A DNA stretch of 12,724 bases from Nanobdellota archaeon (GCA_038045165.1 JBBSYR010000093.1:1-12724); one strand, 5' to 3'; positions 2,084-9,467 are shown, numbered from the stretch's first letter. Notes: generated by a model from the letters alone, not told the origin. Translations and numbers: made by a program.

Positions 2084-2720
2084 ATGCTCTCTGCAATCTT
2101 TTGCGAGTTTAGTTACACTTTTGGCAAAGAAGTCCTAAGAGAAAGTATACAGGAATTTTAAAGTAAGTCGGGCTTTTGGAGACTTATTTTTTAGGTATGC
2201 TGACACCAAAAGATTTTATCATACTCCAAAACATCTTTTAGATTGTTTAAAAGAATTTAAGGGTACTGAAAAATTAGCAAAATCTCCTTTAGTAATCGCT
2301 TCAGCATTATGGTTTCATGATGTAGTTTATGATACGAAAGCAAAGGATAATGAACTGAGAAGTGCAGATTATATGAAAAGAGTTCTTTCAAATCTAGGAG
2401 TTTCATCTCAATTAATAAATTTGACTAATAGAATAATTTTAGTAACAGACCATAAAACTCCTATTGAGAGCGCGGATGAAGCCTTAGCAGTAGATGTTGA
2501 TTTATCAATATTTGGAAAACCAGATGAAGTTTTTAATGATTATGATCAAAACATTAGAAAGGAATATCTTTGGGTTCCAGAAGATCAATATAAAACGGGA
2601 AGAAAACAAGTTTTAAGAAGTTTTTTGGATAGGTCACAGATTTATCAAACGGAACAATTTAGGCAAAAATATGAAGAAAGAGCAAGAACTAATTTAGAAA
2701 GAGCAATTAGGAATCTTTGA
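2084..2720 (+). pseudogene. COG4339-like HD-domain metal-dependent phosphohydrolase, with its reading frame broken near the 5' end
   Basis: The tracked ORF 2373-2720 is only the C-terminal part. The same frame stays open back to 2139 and encodes ...AFGDLFFRYADTKRFYHTPKHLLDCL...ALWFHDVVYDTKAKDNELRSADYM, the R-x-YHT and WFHD-x-x-YD signatures of this family. It has no ATG, GTG or TTG there. TAA at 2136-2138 closes the frame. ATG 2084 in the +2 frame runs to TAA 2159-2161, and ATG 2046 is in frame but stops at 2136. Confidence 0.6.
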
Positions 2721-2814: not shown

Positions 2815-2911
2815 AATTATATTCAAGGACTTAATCAATTGAGCAGTTTGGTCCTTGAATATCAAGGGAAAAACATACAATTTTGCTCAATTATTTATGT
2901 TTTTCACTATA
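2815..2911 (-). mobile_element. Copy A of a roughly 96-nt MITE-like structured repeat (intergenic, inverted relative to copy B)
   Basis: The reverse complement of 2865-2911 is identical over 47 nt to 7158-7204. The rest aligns with 11 substitutions and 1 indel. Internal inverted repeats are 2821-2830 with 2851-2860 (10 bp, perfect) and 2837-2845 with 2884-2892 (9 bp). Confidence 0.75.
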
Positions 2912-3030
2912 GACAGAATTTTAATTCTTTCTTTATTCTAAAAATAGATTTCTATACCCATAGTTAAAAAGAAGAAAGAAACTATAAAAAATTATGCTGG
3001 AACATTAACTATGGTCGTCTTGTATGAAAT

Positions 3031-3354
3031 TCAAAATCCAAATAATCTGTTGTAATCTTTATGATTCATCCAATCTAAAATTGCAGCAATAATTTCGATT
3101 TCACCGCCCGAAGTTACTGAATACAAAAGTCTCCAACCGCTCGGCAAATCATAAATCCAAAGATTTGTGAGCTCATATTTATCAATCAGTTTTCTAGGAA
3201 TCAGCTCTTTCTTGACGTTTCTTCCGCAGGAAAAGTTTTCTTGAATTGCGCTGATTGCCTGAATAATGCCGCGCTTGATAGGATCGTTATCTGAAAGTTC
3301 GTTGAAACTTATTTCAAGTTCTTTATCAACAAAGACAATTTTGTTCGGTTTCAT
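3031..3354 (-). CDS. RelE/ParE-superfamily-like toxin, 107 aa (putative)
   Basis: The C-terminal pattern NLWIYDLPSGWRLLYSV....IEIIAAILDWMNHKDYNRLFG resembles the (G)xRxxY....I.I..I..H(K/R)..Y core of RelE/ParE toxins. Small size. A 4-nt ATGA overlap (3351-3354) couples it to the upstream small ORF. Confidence 0.5.
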   Translation of the reverse strand: MKPNKIVFVDKELEISFNELSDNDPIKRGIIQAISAIQENFSCGRNVKKELIPRKLIDKYELTNLWIYDLPSGWRLLYSVTSGGEIEIIAAILDWMNHKDYNRLFGF

Positions 3355-3641
3355 ATTTTAATTGCAGGTCTGTTCTTTACCTTTTCAAAAAACGCAGGAT
3401 TCCAGATATAAACAACATAACTCTCTGTGTCGTATGCAACTTTATGAATACTTTCAAGGTATTCCATAATGACCTGAAATGTCTGCCACATAACTTTTCG
3501 CGGCAGGCTGTTGAATAACTCTGTTTTCTTGTATGCACCGCTATGTTGTTTAATATAATTCTCAACCATAAGCACGGTTTGTAAAGTTGGAGAGCGCGCA
3601 AAGGGAGATTGTTGTTCAGTTGTGGATTCCATACTTATCAT
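3351..3641 (-). CDS. Putative antitoxin or small DNA-binding partner, 96 aa, family not recognised
   Basis: Translationally coupled and upstream of the toxin-like ORF, which is the classical type II order. The middle region (TLQTVLMVENYIKQHSGAYKKTELFNSL) could be a winged-helix. An alternative start is Met4 (ATG 3632-3630), which would fit a leaderless mRNA. Confidence 0.45.
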   Translation of the reverse strand: MISMESTTEQQSPFARSPTLQTVLMVENYIKQHSGAYKKTELFNSLPRKVMWQTFQVIMEYLESIHKVAYDTESYVVYIWNPAFFEKVKNRPAIKI

Positions 3642-3648
3642 ATCAGTT

Positions 3649-3676
3649 GATATTATTTAAACCTTTCTATCGATAG
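3649..3676 (-). promoter_or_regulatory. TATA-like box (TTTAAATAATATC on the minus strand) plus perfect 10-bp palindrome CTATCGATAG (3667-3676), upstream of the toxin-antitoxin-like pair
   Basis: The AT-rich TATA-like element lies 10-25 nt upstream of the two candidate ATGs. The palindrome sits immediately upstream, where an autoregulatory operator would be expected. Confidence 0.3.
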
Positions 3677-3757
3677 GACTAAGAGTTCTTTGAAAGTTTA
3701 TGGAAAACGGCAGTCACTTAGGTTTAAAACCAGAAATTTGTTGCAACTGACAATATT

Positions 3758-4570
3758 TTATTTAACCTTTCCAAAATTATACCTAAATACTAATGTGCCG
3801 CTTATTCCTTCAGGCATATTGCAAGAAGCAATATCATTATCTGCCCATCCTTCTATATGCCATCTTTTAGTATTGACTGGAGTAAAACGCACGCCTGTTC
3901 TTAGAGAGACTCGATAATTTCCGTCGTTGTTCCCTCCTAACTGATAATTTACGATTGGACCTGCAAATGCCCTTAAAGATGAAGAGCTGGTTGGTTTTGC
4001 TCCAAGAACAGCTCCAGTAAACACATTGTCTGAGCGGTGATTTCTGTCTTTCCCTGCAAATGTAAAAACACCTGCAGCATCAACATTAAATTGTTTATCA
4101 GGCGTTAAATAAGTAAAGCCCGCATTAAGCATATAATCTATGCTCCCTGATCCAAGGGAAGGTTTTGCGTCTGCATCTCCGGTTGGCAGGCGAACCCCTC
4201 CCGCAATACTATAATGAAGGCTGCCAAAAGAATATCTATGAACAAATCTCGGACCAAGTAATAAACTGATATCTCCTATTCCTTCACTTTGTGCTGCTCC
4301 GCTCTCTGCATACTTATAGGGAATAGACGCTCCTGCAAAAATCCATGAAGGATTTTTTGGCCACCATTTGAGAATAGAATTGTTTTCTAAAGAATAATTG
4401 TTTAATTTTCCTGATTCGCGCTCTGATAGGGTTAATCTGTTATCCAACTGAAAATCTGTTGGACCTTCTGCACCGCGGAAAGGATGCTCTGCACGAAGAG
4501 AAGTTAGATTGCTTGCTATCCCAAGCAATCCAATTAATGCACAATTTCGCAAACGGCGTTTTAATTTCAT
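3758..4570 (-). CDS. Outer-membrane beta-barrel protein of the MetA-pathway/phenol-degradation transporter type (COG4313 / PF13557-like), with signal peptide
   Basis: N-terminal signal-like MKLKRRLRNCALIGLLGIASNLTSLRA. Alternating beta-strand pattern with Gly/Tyr-rich turns. Motifs GIGDISLLLGPRF and RLPTGDADAKPSLGSGS are typical of this family. Aromatic-rich C-terminus LVFRYNF. AGGAG lies 5 nt upstream of the ATG. GC is visibly higher than in neighbouring genes. Confidence 0.65.
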   Translation of the reverse strand: MKLKRRLRNCALIGLLGIASNLTSLRAEHPFRGAEGPTDFQLDNRLTLSERESGKLNNYSLENNSILKWWPKNPSWIFAGASIPYKYAESGAAQSEGIGDISLLLGPRFVHRYSFGSLHYSIAGGVRLPTGDADAKPSLGSGSIDYMLNAGFTYLTPDKQFNVDAAGVFTFAGKDRNHRSDNVFTGAVLGAKPTSSSSLRAFAGPIVNYQLGGNNDGNYRVSLRTGVRFTPVNTKRWHIEGWADNDIASCNMPEGISGTLVFRYNFGKVK

Positions 4571-4614
4571 GTTACTCCTACTTAGTTTAATCAGATTAAA
4601 TGCTATTTAATTCT

Positions 4615-4646
4615 ATGTGGTATTGATAAAACACCACATTTATATA
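4615..4646 (+). promoter_or_regulatory. Inverted repeat ATGTGGT-N11-ACCACAT abutting the TATA box TTTATATA, upstream of the TrmB-like gene
   Basis: 4615-4621 is the reverse complement of 4633-4639. TTTATATA at 4639-4646 ends 22 nt before ATG 4668, which is archaeal leaderless-type promoter geometry. Confidence 0.45.
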
Positions 4647-4667
4647 GTGATAATTATTTAGAGAATA

Positions 4668-5411
4668 ATGCAGCTTGATGTATTACGGAAGGTCGGGCTT
4701 TCTGAAGGAGAAATAAAAGTCTACTTAGTATTGCTTACTTTTGGAAGCGCGCATCTCAACAAAATTCATGAAAAAACAGGCATTGAAAGAAGAAATATCT
4801 ATGACATTTTAAATAAGCTTATTGAAAGAGGTTTAGTAAGTTATATGGATGAAAACAAACGGCGCTCATTTACAGCTGTCCATCCAAAAAAGTTAATTAG
4901 TTATCTTGAAGAAAAACAGGAAAATCTTCTGTCTATTAAGCAGGAAGTGAATAAGATGCTGCCCGCTATTATAAAAGTATTTGAATCAAAAAAATCGCTG
5001 ATTGGCGCAGAAATATATAGAGGAGAAGAAGGCATTAAAGCAGTATGGGAAGACAGCCTGAATTATAAAGAAACTTATTGGATAGGCTCCGGCAGATATG
5101 TCCCTAAAAAATTTCCATTATTCTTTTCACATTGGAATAAAAGAAGAGTTCAGAAAAAACATCATTGGTGGAATCTTATAAGGGGCGAAATCAGGAAAGA
5201 ATTATATAAACCTTTATTATTTGAGAATCATAAATTTTTACCTCGAGAATTTAGCGGCAACCCTACGGTTATTTGCATCTATGGAAACAAAGTGGTTAAT
5301 TTCTTGTATGGAGAATCATTGTTTGCCTTTGTAATAGAAAGTAAGGAGCTGGCGGATAACTATCGCACTTATCATAAATATCTCTGGGATAATGTTGCAA
5401 AACCTAAATGA
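4668..5411 (+). CDS. TrmB-family transcriptional regulator
   Basis: The N-terminus LRKVGLSEGEIKVYLVLLTFGSAHLNKIHEKTGIERRNIYDILNKLIERGLVSY is the canonical TrmB winged-HTH. It is followed by a coiled linker and a C-terminal domain. 247 aa. Confidence 0.85.
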   Translation: MQLDVLRKVGLSEGEIKVYLVLLTFGSAHLNKIHEKTGIERRNIYDILNKLIERGLVSYMDENKRRSFTAVHPKKLISYLEEKQENLLSIKQEVNKMLPAIIKVFESKKSLIGAEIYRGEEGIKAVWEDSLNYKETYWIGSGRYVPKKFPLFFSHWNKRRVQKKHHWWNLIRGEIRKELYKPLLFENHKFLPREFSGNPTVICIYGNKVVNFLYGESLFAFVIESKELADNYRTYHKYLWDNVAKPK

Positions 5412-5462
5412 TTAAAATCCCTTTTAAGCTAATAGAAAAGATGGGTGATTCAAAAAGTTGTT

Positions 5463-6434
5463 TTATTGCGGGTTGTTCTCTAAATATTCCTCTGCCACTA
5501 TTTTACCTTCCAGTTCAGGAAATTGGTCAACAATATAAATATCAGTAAGAATTGTCTTAGGAGAAGGAAGCGAACATAAAAGTTCATCAAGAGTTTGCCT
5601 TCTTTCTGTTTCTCCAAACCTATCTACTCTATGCTTCATTACTTCTTGCAATACATCAGCAGGAATCTCTGCCAAACCCTGTGCTCTTGAGCCTGCTTCA
5701 AGCATTTCTCGCATTCTTTCAACCCAATGAGGAGTTTCAATCTCATCTTGTAGACTAACCTCATATAAATAAGGCGGAAAAGTTTTAGGTGCGTGATAGA
5801 TTAATGGAAATCCAGCAGATACTCTATTCGCCTCAAATCTCTTTTGGTATATTCCTTGAAGTTTTTCAATATCTTTCCATGTGGGAAAGTGGGTCATTGT
5901 TTCTTGAAAATCTTCTCTCCATTCTCTCGTTTCTGGCAATTTGCCTTCTGAGGCCTTAAAAACCCTTAACATAAAATCAGCAATTTGCTGCATGTCAGGA
6001 ATAATTGGTGCTAAGATAATCTTAGCCTTTTCATCATTACTAAGTCTTTCATCTAATCCTAATGCAGGATTTCCGGCAAGAGCCATTAACATTCTATTTC
6101 CATATTCTTTCATTAAAGGGTCTTGAGTTAAATCTTCGTCTCGCAAACTTAACATTTTATTTATAACTTCTAAGGGCAAATATCTAGTTTTTGGATTAAT
6201 TCCATACACCTCTGGCAATTCTTCCCATTCTTTCTTGAATTTTCTTTTAAAAATATAATCAAACGTAATAACTCCAACCTTTTTTGGTAAGACAACCTTT
6301 TCAGAAAGACCTTTGTATTTAAGACGAATATCTTTAACAGACTTATCATCAGAATTATGTTCGCATCCTATTTGATAATCTTGCAATCTGAAACCTTCAG
6401 TTTCAGGCACGTAAATTATTCTTACTTGTTCCAT
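5463..6434 (-). CDS. Hypothetical protein, 323 aa, no family recognised
   Basis: Long clean ORF encoding a charged, soluble, helix-rich protein. It runs in the same direction as the tRNA and starts 137 nt downstream of it. The antisense ORF 5941-6126 is rejected. Confidence 0.7.
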   Translation of the reverse strand: MEQVRIIYVPETEGFRLQDYQIGCEHNSDDKSVKDIRLKYKGLSEKVVLPKKVGVITFDYIFKRKFKKEWEELPEVYGINPKTRYLPLEVINKMLSLRDEDLTQDPLMKEYGNRMLMALAGNPALGLDERLSNDEKAKIILAPIIPDMQQIADFMLRVFKASEGKLPETREWREDFQETMTHFPTWKDIEKLQGIYQKRFEANRVSAGFPLIYHAPKTFPPYLYEVSLQDEIETPHWVERMREMLEAGSRAQGLAEIPADVLQEVMKHRVDRFGETERRQTLDELLCSLPSPKTILTDIYIVDQFPELEGKIVAEEYLENNPQ

Positions 6435-6570
6435 ATTATCTTCCCAGAATTAGGCATCCGAGGTTGCCATCGCCTCAAAGAAATCAGCGAGAATCTCGGT
6501 TTTAAACATTTCGATTGAAATAAGCAGGATATAGAGTGATGGATAGCCACAACCATATTTTGATTATGAA

Positions 6571-6646
6571 TAGCGGGGGTGGGATTTGAACCGCACGACC
6601 TCCAGGTTATGGGCCTGGCGAGCACTCCAGGCTGCTCTACCCCGCT
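6571..6646 (-). tRNA. tRNA-Met (anticodon CAT), archaeal initiator-like (A1:U72), no encoded CCA
   Basis: Minus-strand read: AGCGGGG TA GAGC AGCCTGGAGT GCTC G CCAGG CCCATAA CCTGG AGGTC GTGCGG TTCAAAT CCCAC CCCCGCT A. This gives a 7-bp acceptor stem starting with A:U, a 4-bp D stem, a 5-bp anticodon stem and a TTCAAAT T-loop. Confidence 0.85.
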
Positions 6647-6690
6647 AAGCCTTAGGGCTTAACCCTGCTTTAATTGAAAGAGGCGGAAGA

Positions 6691-6698
6691 CTTTTAAA
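6691..6698 (-). promoter_or_regulatory. Candidate TATA box (TTTAAAAG on the minus strand) for the tRNA gene
   Basis: AT-rich box about 45 nt upstream of tRNA position 1. This would imply a leader of about 20 nt. Weak positional evidence only. Confidence 0.3.
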
Positions 6699-6913
6699 CC
6701 TAACGGATACCTGCTTATAAGTCTGCGTTTTCATCGAATATGATTCTCACTTTTTAGTAAGCGAACAAGAAATGCTTCTATTCTCAAGCTCTTTCTTAAT
6801 AAATCTGCAAGTAAGTTAGTATTTACGGCGAGCCAACGCAAAAACCCTGACTTTGTCGTTAAAAAAAGTATTGAGGCATACAACAAGTATTACTTACTAC
6901 TATAAAGATATAT

Positions 6914-9467
6914 ATGCTCCCTTTAATCGTTAACATCATGAAAGAAAATAAAATGAATAAATCCAAATACAATTGGATTATTTTTGCATTGTTGTCTGCA
7001 GTGATTATTTTAGCTGCAGAGTTTGCTTATGCACAATCTACTATAAATCTCGGAACAGCAGGTAATTTTGCTATATTAGCAAAGTCAGGAATTTCAATTA
7101 CTGGAACAACTTCGATTATTGGTAATATGGGAATTAGTCCTGCTGCTTTTAGTTATATATAGTGAAAAACATAAATAATTGAGCAAAATTGTATGTTTTT
7201 CCCTCGATAGTCAAGACCTTTTTGCTCAATTTATTAGGTCATTGACTATAACTGGATTTTCGTATACAATGGATTCCTCTAATCAATTTGCGACATCACC
7301 TTTAATCAACGGAAATATTTATGCGGCAGACTTTGCTTCTCCAACTCCTTCTGTTATGATTACTGCTATAAACGACATGCAAACAGCATATACTGATGCA
7401 TCTGGACGGACATTGCCAGATTATACTGAACTAGAATCTGGAGATATTGGCGGATTAACTTTAACACCGGGGCTTTACAAATGGAGCACTGGCGTGACAA
7501 TTCCCGCTGATGTAACTCTCTCAGGAAACTCAACTGATATCTGGATATTCCAAATAGCACAAACTCTCGATATCAGCTCCGCTACACAAATTATACTAAT
7601 TGGTGGTGCACAGCCAAAGAACATCTTCTGGCAAGTCGCCGGTCAAACGACACTGGGAACCGCTTCTGTTTTCAATGGAAATATTTTAAGTCAAACGGCA
7701 ATTGTGCTAAATACTGGCGCAACATTAAACGGAAGAGCATTAGCACAAACAGCAGTTATCTTAGATTCAAATAATATCTCATCACCTATAGAACTAATTA
7801 GTGATATACTCCCCCCAGTCATAACTCTTAATGGCGCAAGCTCAATTAATGTGTCTTTAGGCTCAGTTTATATTGATGCAGGAGCAACAGCAGAAGACAA
7901 TCTCGATATTACGGCGGTTATTTTTGAAGTTAGCACTGTAGACACATCAATCATTGGAGAATACACGGTAACCTATACTGCGACAGATACTGCGGGCAAC
8001 ACTGCAATATTGATAAGGACAATTAATGTTATAGTAGAATCCCCTGTTTTGACAACAATCACCTTGTCACCAACTTATGAATTACTTACTGCTGGAGATA
8101 CTTTGCAGTTGAAGGCTACAAGTCTTGATCAGTTTGGCGCTCCTATAAATGCAATTATTTCTTATTCTTCAAGCGTCCCATCTACAGCTACAGTAGATGC
8201 TGTAAGCGGTCTTGTTACTGCTGTTGCTTTTGGGATTAGTACTACCATTACTGCAAGAAGCGGAAATGTAAGTGGAATAATGTTAATCACTATAGACAGC
8301 ATTGCTCCAGTGCTTTCTCCTATAGGCCCAAGAAGTGTGACTCAAGGAAATTTGCTTAATTTCACAATAACAGCTACAAGTCCCGAGGGACTTGATTTAG
8401 CATTTATGATAGCAGTTGAACCCCCTACAACCGCAACCTTAACAGATCATCAAGATGGAACTGCAACATTCAACTGGATGCCTGATTTAAATGACGTTGG
8501 CACAACTAATGTGAGATTCATCGCTCTTGATGGCAGAAGAACTACATACGAAGATGTAGCAATAATTGTAAATGCGTTCCCAGCACCAACAACAATTTCA
8601 ACAAATCTAGGAAATGTAGAGAAAAACGCTGACTACAACATTGCCTTGAACGCTACAGGATTTAATAACACACCAGTCGCATATATTAACTATTCATTAA
8701 ATAATGTTTCTGGGCAAATAAACGGAAGTTTCGGAAACGTATTAATAAACACAAACGGAAACAACGCTCTGATATTTTACGCTGTTGACATCTTAGGAAA
8801 CATAGAAACACCAAACACAATTTATGCACTACTGAACAAAAACACGCCCTCCCCAGAGGGAGGCAATGGAAATACTGGAAGCAGCGGTGGCGGAGGAGGC
8901 GGAGGCATTACCGCAACGACAGTAATAGCTGCTGTTAAGACTTATATTCCTGCAAATGCTGAATTAAGCATAGGATATGCAAACGTGCTAAGTAAGAATG
9001 ATATAGTAAAATTTGTTAGCAGCGATAATGATATACATAGTATTACAATTAGCGACCTTAGCGCAACTGATGTTAAGATAACTCTTGCATCAACGCCTCA
9101 GATAGTTGTTATGAAGTCTGGAGAGACAAAGAAATTTGAATTGACCTGGGATAATAAATATGATTTGGAAATCGCTGTTGGAACATTAAATACTGGAAGT
9201 GTAACTATGGTTGTAAAGACTATATCGGAAGATATCTATCCTGTTGTCGAACAGCTCGAAACAGTCTCATCAACAACCCAAGCTGAAACTACGCCTGCAT
9301 CAGCTTCTGCAGCAAATTCTGAAGTTACTAATGGTAATGGAATAACTGGAGCGGCAATAGGAGCTTTTGTAAAGAAACCTCTTACCTTAGGAATTATCGC
9401 TCTTCTTTTGATTGCAATCGTATATTCCATAGTCGTTCTTAGAAAAATAAATTCTTCAAGGAATTAA
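6914..9467 (+). pseudogene. Large cell-surface protein interrupted by the 96-nt repeat. Order: signal peptide, ice-binding-like DUF3494 beta-helix, Ig-like domains, poly-Gly linker, C-terminal TM anchor
   Basis: ORF 6914-7162 encodes the signal peptide (NWIIFALLSAVIILAAEFAYA) and the domain start LGTAGNFAILAKSGISITGTTSIIGNMGISPAA. ORF 7179-9467 resumes at 7245 with TITGFSY...TPGLYKW...IWIFQI...GGAQPKNIFWQV...LNGRALAQTAV, the rest of DUF3494. Next come a DUF5011-like segment (PVITLNG...YTVTYTATDTAGN), a Big_2-like segment and a He_PIG-like segment. Then GSSGGGGGGG (about 8880-8905) and the TM segment LTLGIIALLLIAIVYSIVVL. The true start is probably ATG 6938 or 6953, downstream of the TATA-like CTATAAAG at about 6900. 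Confidence 0.8.
7158..7253 (+). mobile_element. Copy B of the roughly 96-nt MITE-like structured repeat, inserted within the DUF3494 coding sequence
   Basis: Homology to the reverse complement of 2815-2911 begins at TATAGTG (7158) and ends at TATAACT (7253). TATA is repeated at both junctions (7156-7159 and 7247-7250). Terminal inverted repeat: TATAGTGAA against TATAGTCAA. Internal hairpins: 7177-7188 with 7220-7231 (12 bp) and 7209-7218 with 7237-7247 (10 bp plus a bulge). It carries the stops TAG 7160 and TGA 7163. Confidence 0.8.

Follow-up and report, generated by a model that had tools for sequence, protein, structure and literature searches.

The known systems closest to the element described here are TA-duplicating MITEs derived from IS630/Tc1-mariner elements, exemplified by the Stowaway elements of plants. 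Like the present element these are ~90 nt in length, non-coding, carry terminal inverted repeats (TIRs), duplicate TA and occur in many copies, and they also share with it a mostly intergenic location with occasional gene disruption and presence/absence polymorphism. They differ in that each TIR of the present element is located in its own covarying hairpin and not in one foldback. MITEs are well known in archaea, and the present family is apparently new and undescribed. Archaeal MITEs are 88.9% intergenic and about 11% intragenic, with DPANN genomes among the densest in these elements (PMC11602168; also PMC10969869), and SM1-SM4 of Sulfolobus are cited as archaeal MITEs in PMC10969869.

Several bacterial repeats are also similar in one respect or another. 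The Correia elements of Neisseria (CREE/NEMIS) are of comparable size (about 100-150 nt) and start with TATAGTGG where the present element starts with TATAGTGAA, but they are bacterial and have 26-bp repeats of an otherwise different sequence. Correia elements duplicate TA and form hairpins in transcripts, and they have no known transposase. Their inverted repeats are described as beginning 5'-TATAGTGG... (PMC5039591), and the 7 nt that they share with the present element (TATAGTG) may reflect chance or convergence on TA-(C/T)AGTG ends. REPINs and BIMEs, which are REP doublets mobilised by RAYT, also consist of two inverted hairpin units of ~100 nt in total with stems that are kept by compensatory change. 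However, REPs lie outside genes, carry a 5' tetranucleotide of the GTAG type and do not duplicate their target, whereas the present element disrupts genes and demonstrably duplicates TA. Another group of small palindromic repeats, the Rickettsia palindromic elements, occurs within protein-coding genes (PMC10969869), but these are inserted in frame and translated as part of the protein while the present element introduces stops in all forward frames as well as a frameshift. Finally, a ~167-nt MITE from a Saprospiraceae MAG (loci L004 and L005; contigs JAHDGC010000329 and JAHDGC010000436) is flanked by TA and has 24 of 25 nt in common with the present element (TAA[G/A]TAATTGAGCAAAATTGTATGT) as well as a second common block of 9-10 nt (GTCAAGGCG / AGTCAAGAC). 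In the Saprospiraceae MITE the larger common block is its TIR, whereas here it is located 16 nt inside the end in a hairpin loop, and the host of the former is labelled bacterial while the host of the latter is archaeal. Overall, the present element resembles TA-duplicating IS630/Tc1-type MITEs most closely in behaviour and REPIN-like doublets most closely in architecture.

A surface-protein gene is split by 91 extra bases

The window, which is the whole stretch of 12,724 nt that was analysed (34.8% GC), contains an ice-binding-like gene in two parts:

6914 to 7159, plus strand: 5' gene fragment coding for the signal peptide and the first ~40 DUF3494 residues (from the ORF list and homologue alignment)
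7251 to 9467, plus strand: 3' gene part coding for the remaining DUF3494 residues, Ig-like domains and a C-terminal membrane anchor

The first ORF (6914-7162) ends in ...GNMGISPAAFSYI-TAG and codes for a Sec-type signal peptide, with start codons at 6938 or 6953 giving a better fit to the N-termini of homologues (MKQ.K...) than the one at 6914. The second ORF (7179-9467), with the sequence ...LTITGFSYTMDSS..., occupies another frame, and its product has no signal peptide, as the earlier note had pointed out. From 7251 to 9467 this ORF is fully open for 738 codons plus a stop, which agrees with the claim that more than 2.2 kb downstream of the insertion has remained open. Deletion of 7160-7250 (91 nt) rejoins the frame as had been proposed, giving a 2463-nt ORF of 820 amino acids with a single terminal stop. 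The deleted interval can be shifted by up to 4 nt, and TATA is indeed seen at both junctions.

The rejoined junction reads ...GISPAAFSYITGFSYTMDSSNQF (...SPAAFSYITGF...). Pfam matches PF11999 to the repaired protein as one stretch (residues 54-258, profile positions 1-207 of 208, 256.6 bits), which together with the two ORFs bears out the earlier reading of a single ice-binding-like gene split by an insertion. The comparison with PF11999 that had been suggested as a check is gap-free at the junction. The junction also aligns without a gap to PDB entries 9li0, 9lhn and 9lhs (E values of 4e-90 to 1e-85) and to 11 full-length homologues, with I82, T83 and G84 being invariant. The six residues that the earlier note had counted between SP and TGF are found in the query as well as in the alignments with the structures and the homologues. 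None of the residues encoded by the insert is needed by the protein.

In the databases the 5' fragment is an 82-aa 'hypothetical protein' (NCBI MEK6893386), and the 3' fragment is a 732/741-aa 'ice-binding family protein' with a start inside the transposon, with the pair MEK6893386/7 labelled '[Nanoarchaeota archaeon]'. Both entries are halves of one disrupted gene. This gene codes for a surface protein with a DUF3494 (ice-binding-like) domain, which is secreted and anchored in the membrane, in a DPANN archaeon from groundwater. An Rfam search of the whole window at the gathering threshold also places a tRNA-Met at 6570-6647.

The insert is one copy of a repeat element

The features of the insert, and of a second copy of the same element in the window, are as follows:

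7158 to 7159, no strand: probable left copy of the target TA (from family boundaries, frame arithmetic and analogy with the L014/L036 empty site)
7160 to 7248, plus strand: MITE body, 89 nt, TAGTGAAAAAC...CATTGACTA
7249 to 7250, no strand: probable right copy of the target TA
7158 to 7188, plus strand: left TIR, 31 nt, with core AATTGAGCAAAA at 7177-7188
7220 to 7250, plus strand: right TIR, with core TTTTGCTCAATT at 7220-7231
2818 to 2911, minus strand: second MITE copy, 94 nt, with a right end of a different subfamily

The second copy is intergenic, located between the 3' ends of the convergent ORFs 2373-2720 (plus strand) and 3031-3354 (minus strand). The left 58 nt of the two window copies are 97% identical while the right part has diverged more, and their comparison sets the element boundaries as TATAGTG... 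and ...(C/A)TATA. The length of 96 nt given previously for the insertion therefore needs correction, as the element is 93 nt with both flanking TAs and has an 89-nt body and a net gain of 91 nt. Only this net gain, the one given by the TA-duplication model, brings the window gene back into frame. A 93-nt element without a duplication, an 89-nt net insertion, and an IS605-like model with insertion 3' of TATA of an 89-nt element starting from GTG were each rejected, as by sequence arithmetic none of them restores the frame. Any of the TAs in TATATA could equally be the duplicate.

The two TIRs are imperfect (81% complementary), while their 12-nt cores AATTGAGCAAAA and TTTTGCTCAATT are almost invariant across the family. 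The element has no coding capacity, with stop codons in all three forward frames of the MITE body within 24 nt, the first of which (TAG at 7160-7162) terminates the upstream ORF.

The family in groundwater archaea

Further copies were collected by scanning public collections for exact matches to a 20-mer from the conserved part, supplemented with an nhmmer profile. The 20-mer scan of the metagenome set gave 30 loci, about 25 of which are true relatives. Together with the second window copy, the at least 21 further complete and independent insertion sites outside the window, in addition to a few partial or shortened copies, confirm that the DNA between the two gene parts is a repeat element. 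Nearly all copies are 93-94 nt, and every complete copy starts with TATAGT(G/T)AAA and ends with (C/A)TATA between unrelated flanks, with the end pattern TATAGT...ACTATA present in the 21 complete copies tabulated. The flanking context is weakly palindromic around the TA, being weakly A-rich on the left and T-rich on the right. The host contigs are from groundwater metagenomes, are low in GC (31-35%) and carry the archaeal hallmark genes aEF-1alpha, aIF-2, CDC48, MCM and Trm5b. About 4 of the ~23 sites are genic, with the element in both orientations, and the other sites are intergenic.

Two longer variants (L023, 285 nt; L033, 150 nt) were considered as ISs and rejected, since they are MITEs with internal insertions, and a 'solo end' at L012 4696-4708 was dismissed as a chance match. 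A scan of the GTDB representative genomes, a set from which the window organism is absent, matched only the Saprospiraceae MITE. Neither BLASTN searches of plasmid and phage collections with the element nor a scan of viral contigs gave a match. Rfam 15 returned only 17- and 16-bit chance-level matches (thresholds 97 and 52) for 7100-7310 at E<=1, and at the gathering threshold it gave no family for the element over the whole window. As far as the Rfam, plasmid and phage comparisons go, the sequence of the element is apparently unrelated to described families. A search of the ~260 kb of retrieved loci for inverted end motifs 0.06-4 kb apart gave no autonomous IS, as no inverted end pair 0.6-4 kb apart encloses a transposase, and there are no multi-copy ORFs or proteins.

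An empty site at a second disrupted gene

When the element plus one TA was removed at every site, long ORFs were rejoined at four of them, namely the window gene, L009, L014 and L024/L019. At L009 a YdeI/OmdA-family ORF is restored, in which a PF13376 match of 43 bits (residues 76-128) spans the junction at 83. The L014 site gives an isochorismatase-like ORF with a sub-threshold Pfam match across the junction, and at L024/L019 the ORF of a protein with at least 988 amino acids recovers its final 21 codons.

No empty site was found among the retrieved loci by means of joined flanks; one was found instead by a protein search with the repaired L014 product. This search recovered a shortened product (P0125) that is 100% identical and present on 13 contigs, and an uninterrupted full-length allele (P0124, DNA L036) that is 97% identical. 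The empty site in L036 reads ...GTTTTAG-TA-GATGAGG..., and the filled site in L014 reads ...GTTTTAG-TA-TAGTCAAGG...TTTAACTA-TA-GATGAGG.... The gap between the two DNAs is exactly 91 nt, with flanks that are about 98% identical. The L014/L036 pair thus establishes that there is presence/absence polymorphism, that the target TA is duplicated and that an element of 89 nt adds 91 nt in total, which is the same arithmetic as needed by the window gene. For the window copy itself, we infer a TA duplication from the frame arithmetic, the family boundaries and the L014/L036 pair.

The conserved structure is a pair of hairpins

The insert folds well beyond chance both as RNA in context (z = -3.9) and as DNA (z = -4.9), with no shuffle equalling it. 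Two local hairpins are present:

7164 to 7201, plus strand: hairpin 1, stem 7164-7173 (GAAAAACATA) with 7192-7201 (TATGTTTTTC); the 18-nt loop holds the left TIR core
7207 to 7249, plus strand: hairpin 2, stem 7207-7218 (ATAGTCAAGACC) with 7237-7249 (GGTC-A-TTGACTAT); A7241 is bulged and the loop holds the right TIR core

Across the family, 96% of the pairs in these hairpins are standard, and 5 pairs are altered on both sides in 22 cells (17 distinct copies). The compensatory changes are A:T / G:C / T:A at column pair 13-42 in hairpin 1, and are at column pairs 55-92, 57-90 and 64-83 in hairpin 2. The covariation score of the hairpins is 0.187 versus 0.084 in shuffles, with none of 500 shuffles reaching 0.187, and the score is at most 0.055 when the partners are slid. 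In contrast, pairing of TIR with TIR in the family alignment gives 81% pairs and no covariation. This supports two local hairpins as the maintained structure, and a single long end-to-end foldback was rejected on this account. Given that each repeat core is located in a hairpin loop, the element consists of one hairpin unit of ~45 nt and its inverted counterpart.

Origin of the insertion and alternative explanations

The 91 extra bases very probably represent a MITE that was inserted at a TA with duplication of this TA, thereby disrupting an intact surface-protein gene. Of the readings offered by the earlier note, inactivation of a surface protein by a TA-duplicating MITE is the one that is supported, by the multi-copy family and by the sister empty site in L036. 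Insertion would have occurred at a TA inside codons 81-82 (TAT ATA) of the gene, converting a single TA into TA...TA. Translation stops after 82 residues because the first element codon in the gene frame is TAG, and the remaining 738 codons are shifted by +1 and left with neither a start codon nor a signal peptide. The window allele would thus appear to be a null (pseudogene) allele, and the insertion is probably recent in evolutionary terms, since the 2.2 kb downstream have not acquired a stop or frameshift.

Mobilisation would presumably be in trans by an IS630/Tc1-mariner-type DDE transposase, as suggested by the TA duplication, by TA-TAGTG ends that are similar to the TA-CAGTG of Tc1, and by the weakly palindromic target. 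The transposase family is proposed from these features, as no autonomous element or transposase with matching ends occurs in the retrieved loci. The conserved inner motif AATTGAGCAAAA may be the transposase-binding site. Bacterial and archaeal IS630 transposases are interspersed in their phylogeny (PMC13343696), which would fit a core shared with a bacterial MITE. A caveat is that covarying local hairpins are not required by a simple double-stranded cut-and-paste model.

A first alternative is that the MITE acts as a reversible on/off switch, with precise excision making the surface-protein gene population-variable in a manner like phase variation. A transposase could mediate the excision, or replication could slip across the hairpins from one TATA repeat to the other. 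The 4-nt TATA at both junctions, the strong hairpins and the presence/absence polymorphism of the family at another gene (L014/L036) are in favour of such a switch, as are the intact ORF downstream of the insert and the contig of assembly L002 (ERZ1292638) that starts exactly at 7158, the element edge. However, any recent insertion also predicts an intact downstream ORF, and repeat-induced graph branching explains the L002 break equally well. The distribution of alleles also argues against a switch. Window DNA is present as well in ENA assemblies of Hainich groundwater, and the inserted allele is the only one seen in at least three assemblies. All assemblies that read through the site contain the insertion, which is identical base for base in the independent assemblies L001 (GCA_964363325.1) and L003 (ERZ1292629). 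A junction without the element would read GCTTTTAGTTATATAACTGGATTTTCG in the window gene. When the repaired protein was looked up for exact matches, from each of three possible start codons, no intact allele was present among 15 billion proteins, Hainich assemblies included, and the homologue search gave no intact allele of the window gene above 66% identity. Mobility at the window site is therefore argued by analogy with L014/L036, as no insertion-free allele of this gene was found. We regard a switch as unlikely.

It is also quite unlikely that the element is a REPIN/BIME-like doublet that an HUH (Y1) enzyme of the IS200/IS605-RAYT type mobilises in the form of single-stranded DNA. This explanation would account for an architecture in which a ~45-nt unit, composed of TATAGT followed by stem, conserved loop and stem, is present twice in inverted orientation, and for compensatory changes that are found in both hairpins and not in the long TIR-TIR pairing, and no other IS family is as widespread in archaea as IS200/IS605 (PMC13343696). 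Nevertheless, IS200/IS605 elements and REPs make no target duplication, while a TA duplication is demonstrated by L014/L036, and they need a specific left flank of 4-5 nt where here TA alone is shared. True TIRs are also present, some insertions are genic, and a non-systematic look noticed no Y1 gene nearby.

Removal or skipping of the element at the RNA or translation level, another reading raised in the earlier note, is very unlikely. In one version the element would be a bulge-helix-bulge (BHB) intron, that is an archaeal intron cut by the tRNA-splicing endonuclease, with the spliced junction AGTTATATA-ACTGGA. Such introns have two 3-nt bulges that are separated by a 4-bp helix, together with at least one flanking helix. 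The host is archaeal, and for a removal of 91 nt one can draw a 4-bp helix between two AUA 'bulges'. However, central helices with 4/4 pairs are common by chance in this AT-rich stretch, the best 91-nt candidate has flanking helices of only 1 bp (both G-U), and the hairpins that would compete with it have a much greater stability. A BHB motif scan that covered excisions of 70-111 nt with every bulge position gave nothing convincing. In the other version ribosomes would bypass the element by jumping from ATA (7157-7159) to ATA (7248-7250), with matching take-off and landing codons and with a stop codon and hairpins after the take-off site. Matching ATA codons nevertheless arise whenever TA is duplicated within TATATA, and the corresponding codons at L014 (GTA versus ATA) do not match. 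Removal from RNA is also at odds with copies that are mostly intergenic, with genic copies in both orientations and with the lack of an Rfam family match.

Finally, an assembly artefact or chimera, conceivable in that mis-joins can occur at repeats and that the L002 contig ends at the element, is extremely unlikely, as both junctions are identical between assemblies that were made independently with different samples and different assemblers, which answers the concern that a chimera would undo the finding, and the flanks are one gene with halves that fit perfectly.

Implications

Insertion of a TA-duplicating MITE is an ordinary transposon process that is well supported here. A broader idea, which we consider improbable, is that the family may constitute a DPANN hairpin-doublet replicator that combines selected stems, a core shared across domains and reversible insertions in surface-protein genes. 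If true, selection on the stems would mean that there is a single-stranded DNA or RNA stage, the core shared with the Saprospiraceae MITE would imply one transposase lineage mobilising elements across domains, and precise excision between TA(TA) repeats would amount to a crude phase variation for episymbiotic archaea.

The practical value lies mainly in annotation, for which DPANN MAGs should have this MITE family masked. Leads on how such elements are recognised come from the covarying hairpins and from the core in common with a bacterial MITE; neither is surprising enough to alter current views. More generally, these results document an active TA-duplicating MITE family, with a real empty site, in groundwater DPANN archaea, where the element hits genes in small, gene-dense genomes, including that of a surface protein with a possible role in cell-cell contact.

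Interrupted and intact alleles

Public data contain both alleles of the isochorismatase-like gene, with the allele interrupted by the archaeal MITE (locus L014, truncated product P0125) found on 13 contigs versus one contig that carries the intact allele (P0124). The MITE-bearing allele is the commoner one in these data, and only the last ~50 residues of the product are lost. Regarding the split DUF3494 gene of the window, the 741-aa NCBI model of its 3' fragment (P0121) takes as start codon a TTG at 7242-7244, which lies within the transposon, and a 732-aa model takes ATG 7269 as its first codon; the two models are annotation artefacts that arise because the gene is split. Position 1 of an independent SPAdes contig (L002) corresponds to window 7158, the exact first base of the element. 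The repeat could have made the assembly graph branch there, or the population could be heterogeneous at the left junction.

Variant and paired copies

Several copies of the archaeal MITE depart from the usual form. The copy at L013 8608-8700 (minus strand) has a hairpin 1 loop that runs opposite to the remainder of the copy, reading TTATAATTGAGCAAAATTG as compared to CAATTTTGCTCAATTAT in the other copies when read in the same orientation, while the stem is the same, as if the 10-bp stem arms of hairpin 1 had recombined. At L017 1466-1513 and L026 222-269 the 16-nt left end TATAGTTAAAGACATA occurs in tandem triplicate before an otherwise normal copy. Long variants were also observed:

L023 12306-12590, minus strand: 285-nt variant, ends normal
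L033 1548-1697, plus strand: 150-nt variant, ends normal

Both contain additional palindrome-rich DNA, placed between or within the hairpins, that could be nested small repeats. Finally, locus L006 has an inverted-orientation pair of copies, 2119-2211 (plus) and 4365-4457 (minus), enclosing 2.1 kb with two ORFs, one of them SAM-methyltransferase-like, an arrangement that resembles a composite transposon.

Other genes

A signal-peptide protein encoded at window 3758-4570 (minus strand) matches PF13557 (Phenol_MetA_deg; E 6e-8). This is a bacterial outer-membrane beta-barrel family, and the match is odd in an archaeon. Contig L035 encodes a 1203-aa elongation-factor-2-like ORF (3417-7028, minus strand) with HHGKC ISGKSKILLADG immediately after the P-loop region, which looks like an intein insertion.

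An element with shared blocks in a bin labelled bacterial

A TA-flanked MITE of ~167 nt is present in a MAG labelled Saprospiraceae (L004 ~4590-4760 and L005 ~2925-3095, both minus strand). Its terminal inverted repeat TAAGTAATTGAGCAAAATT and the archaeal element's inner TIR/hairpin-loop agree at 24 of 25 nt, and a further block of 9-10 nt (GTCAAGGCG) is also common to the two elements. The similarity suggests that archaeal and bacterial elements have a transposase-binding site in common, or else that the contigs are mis-binned.
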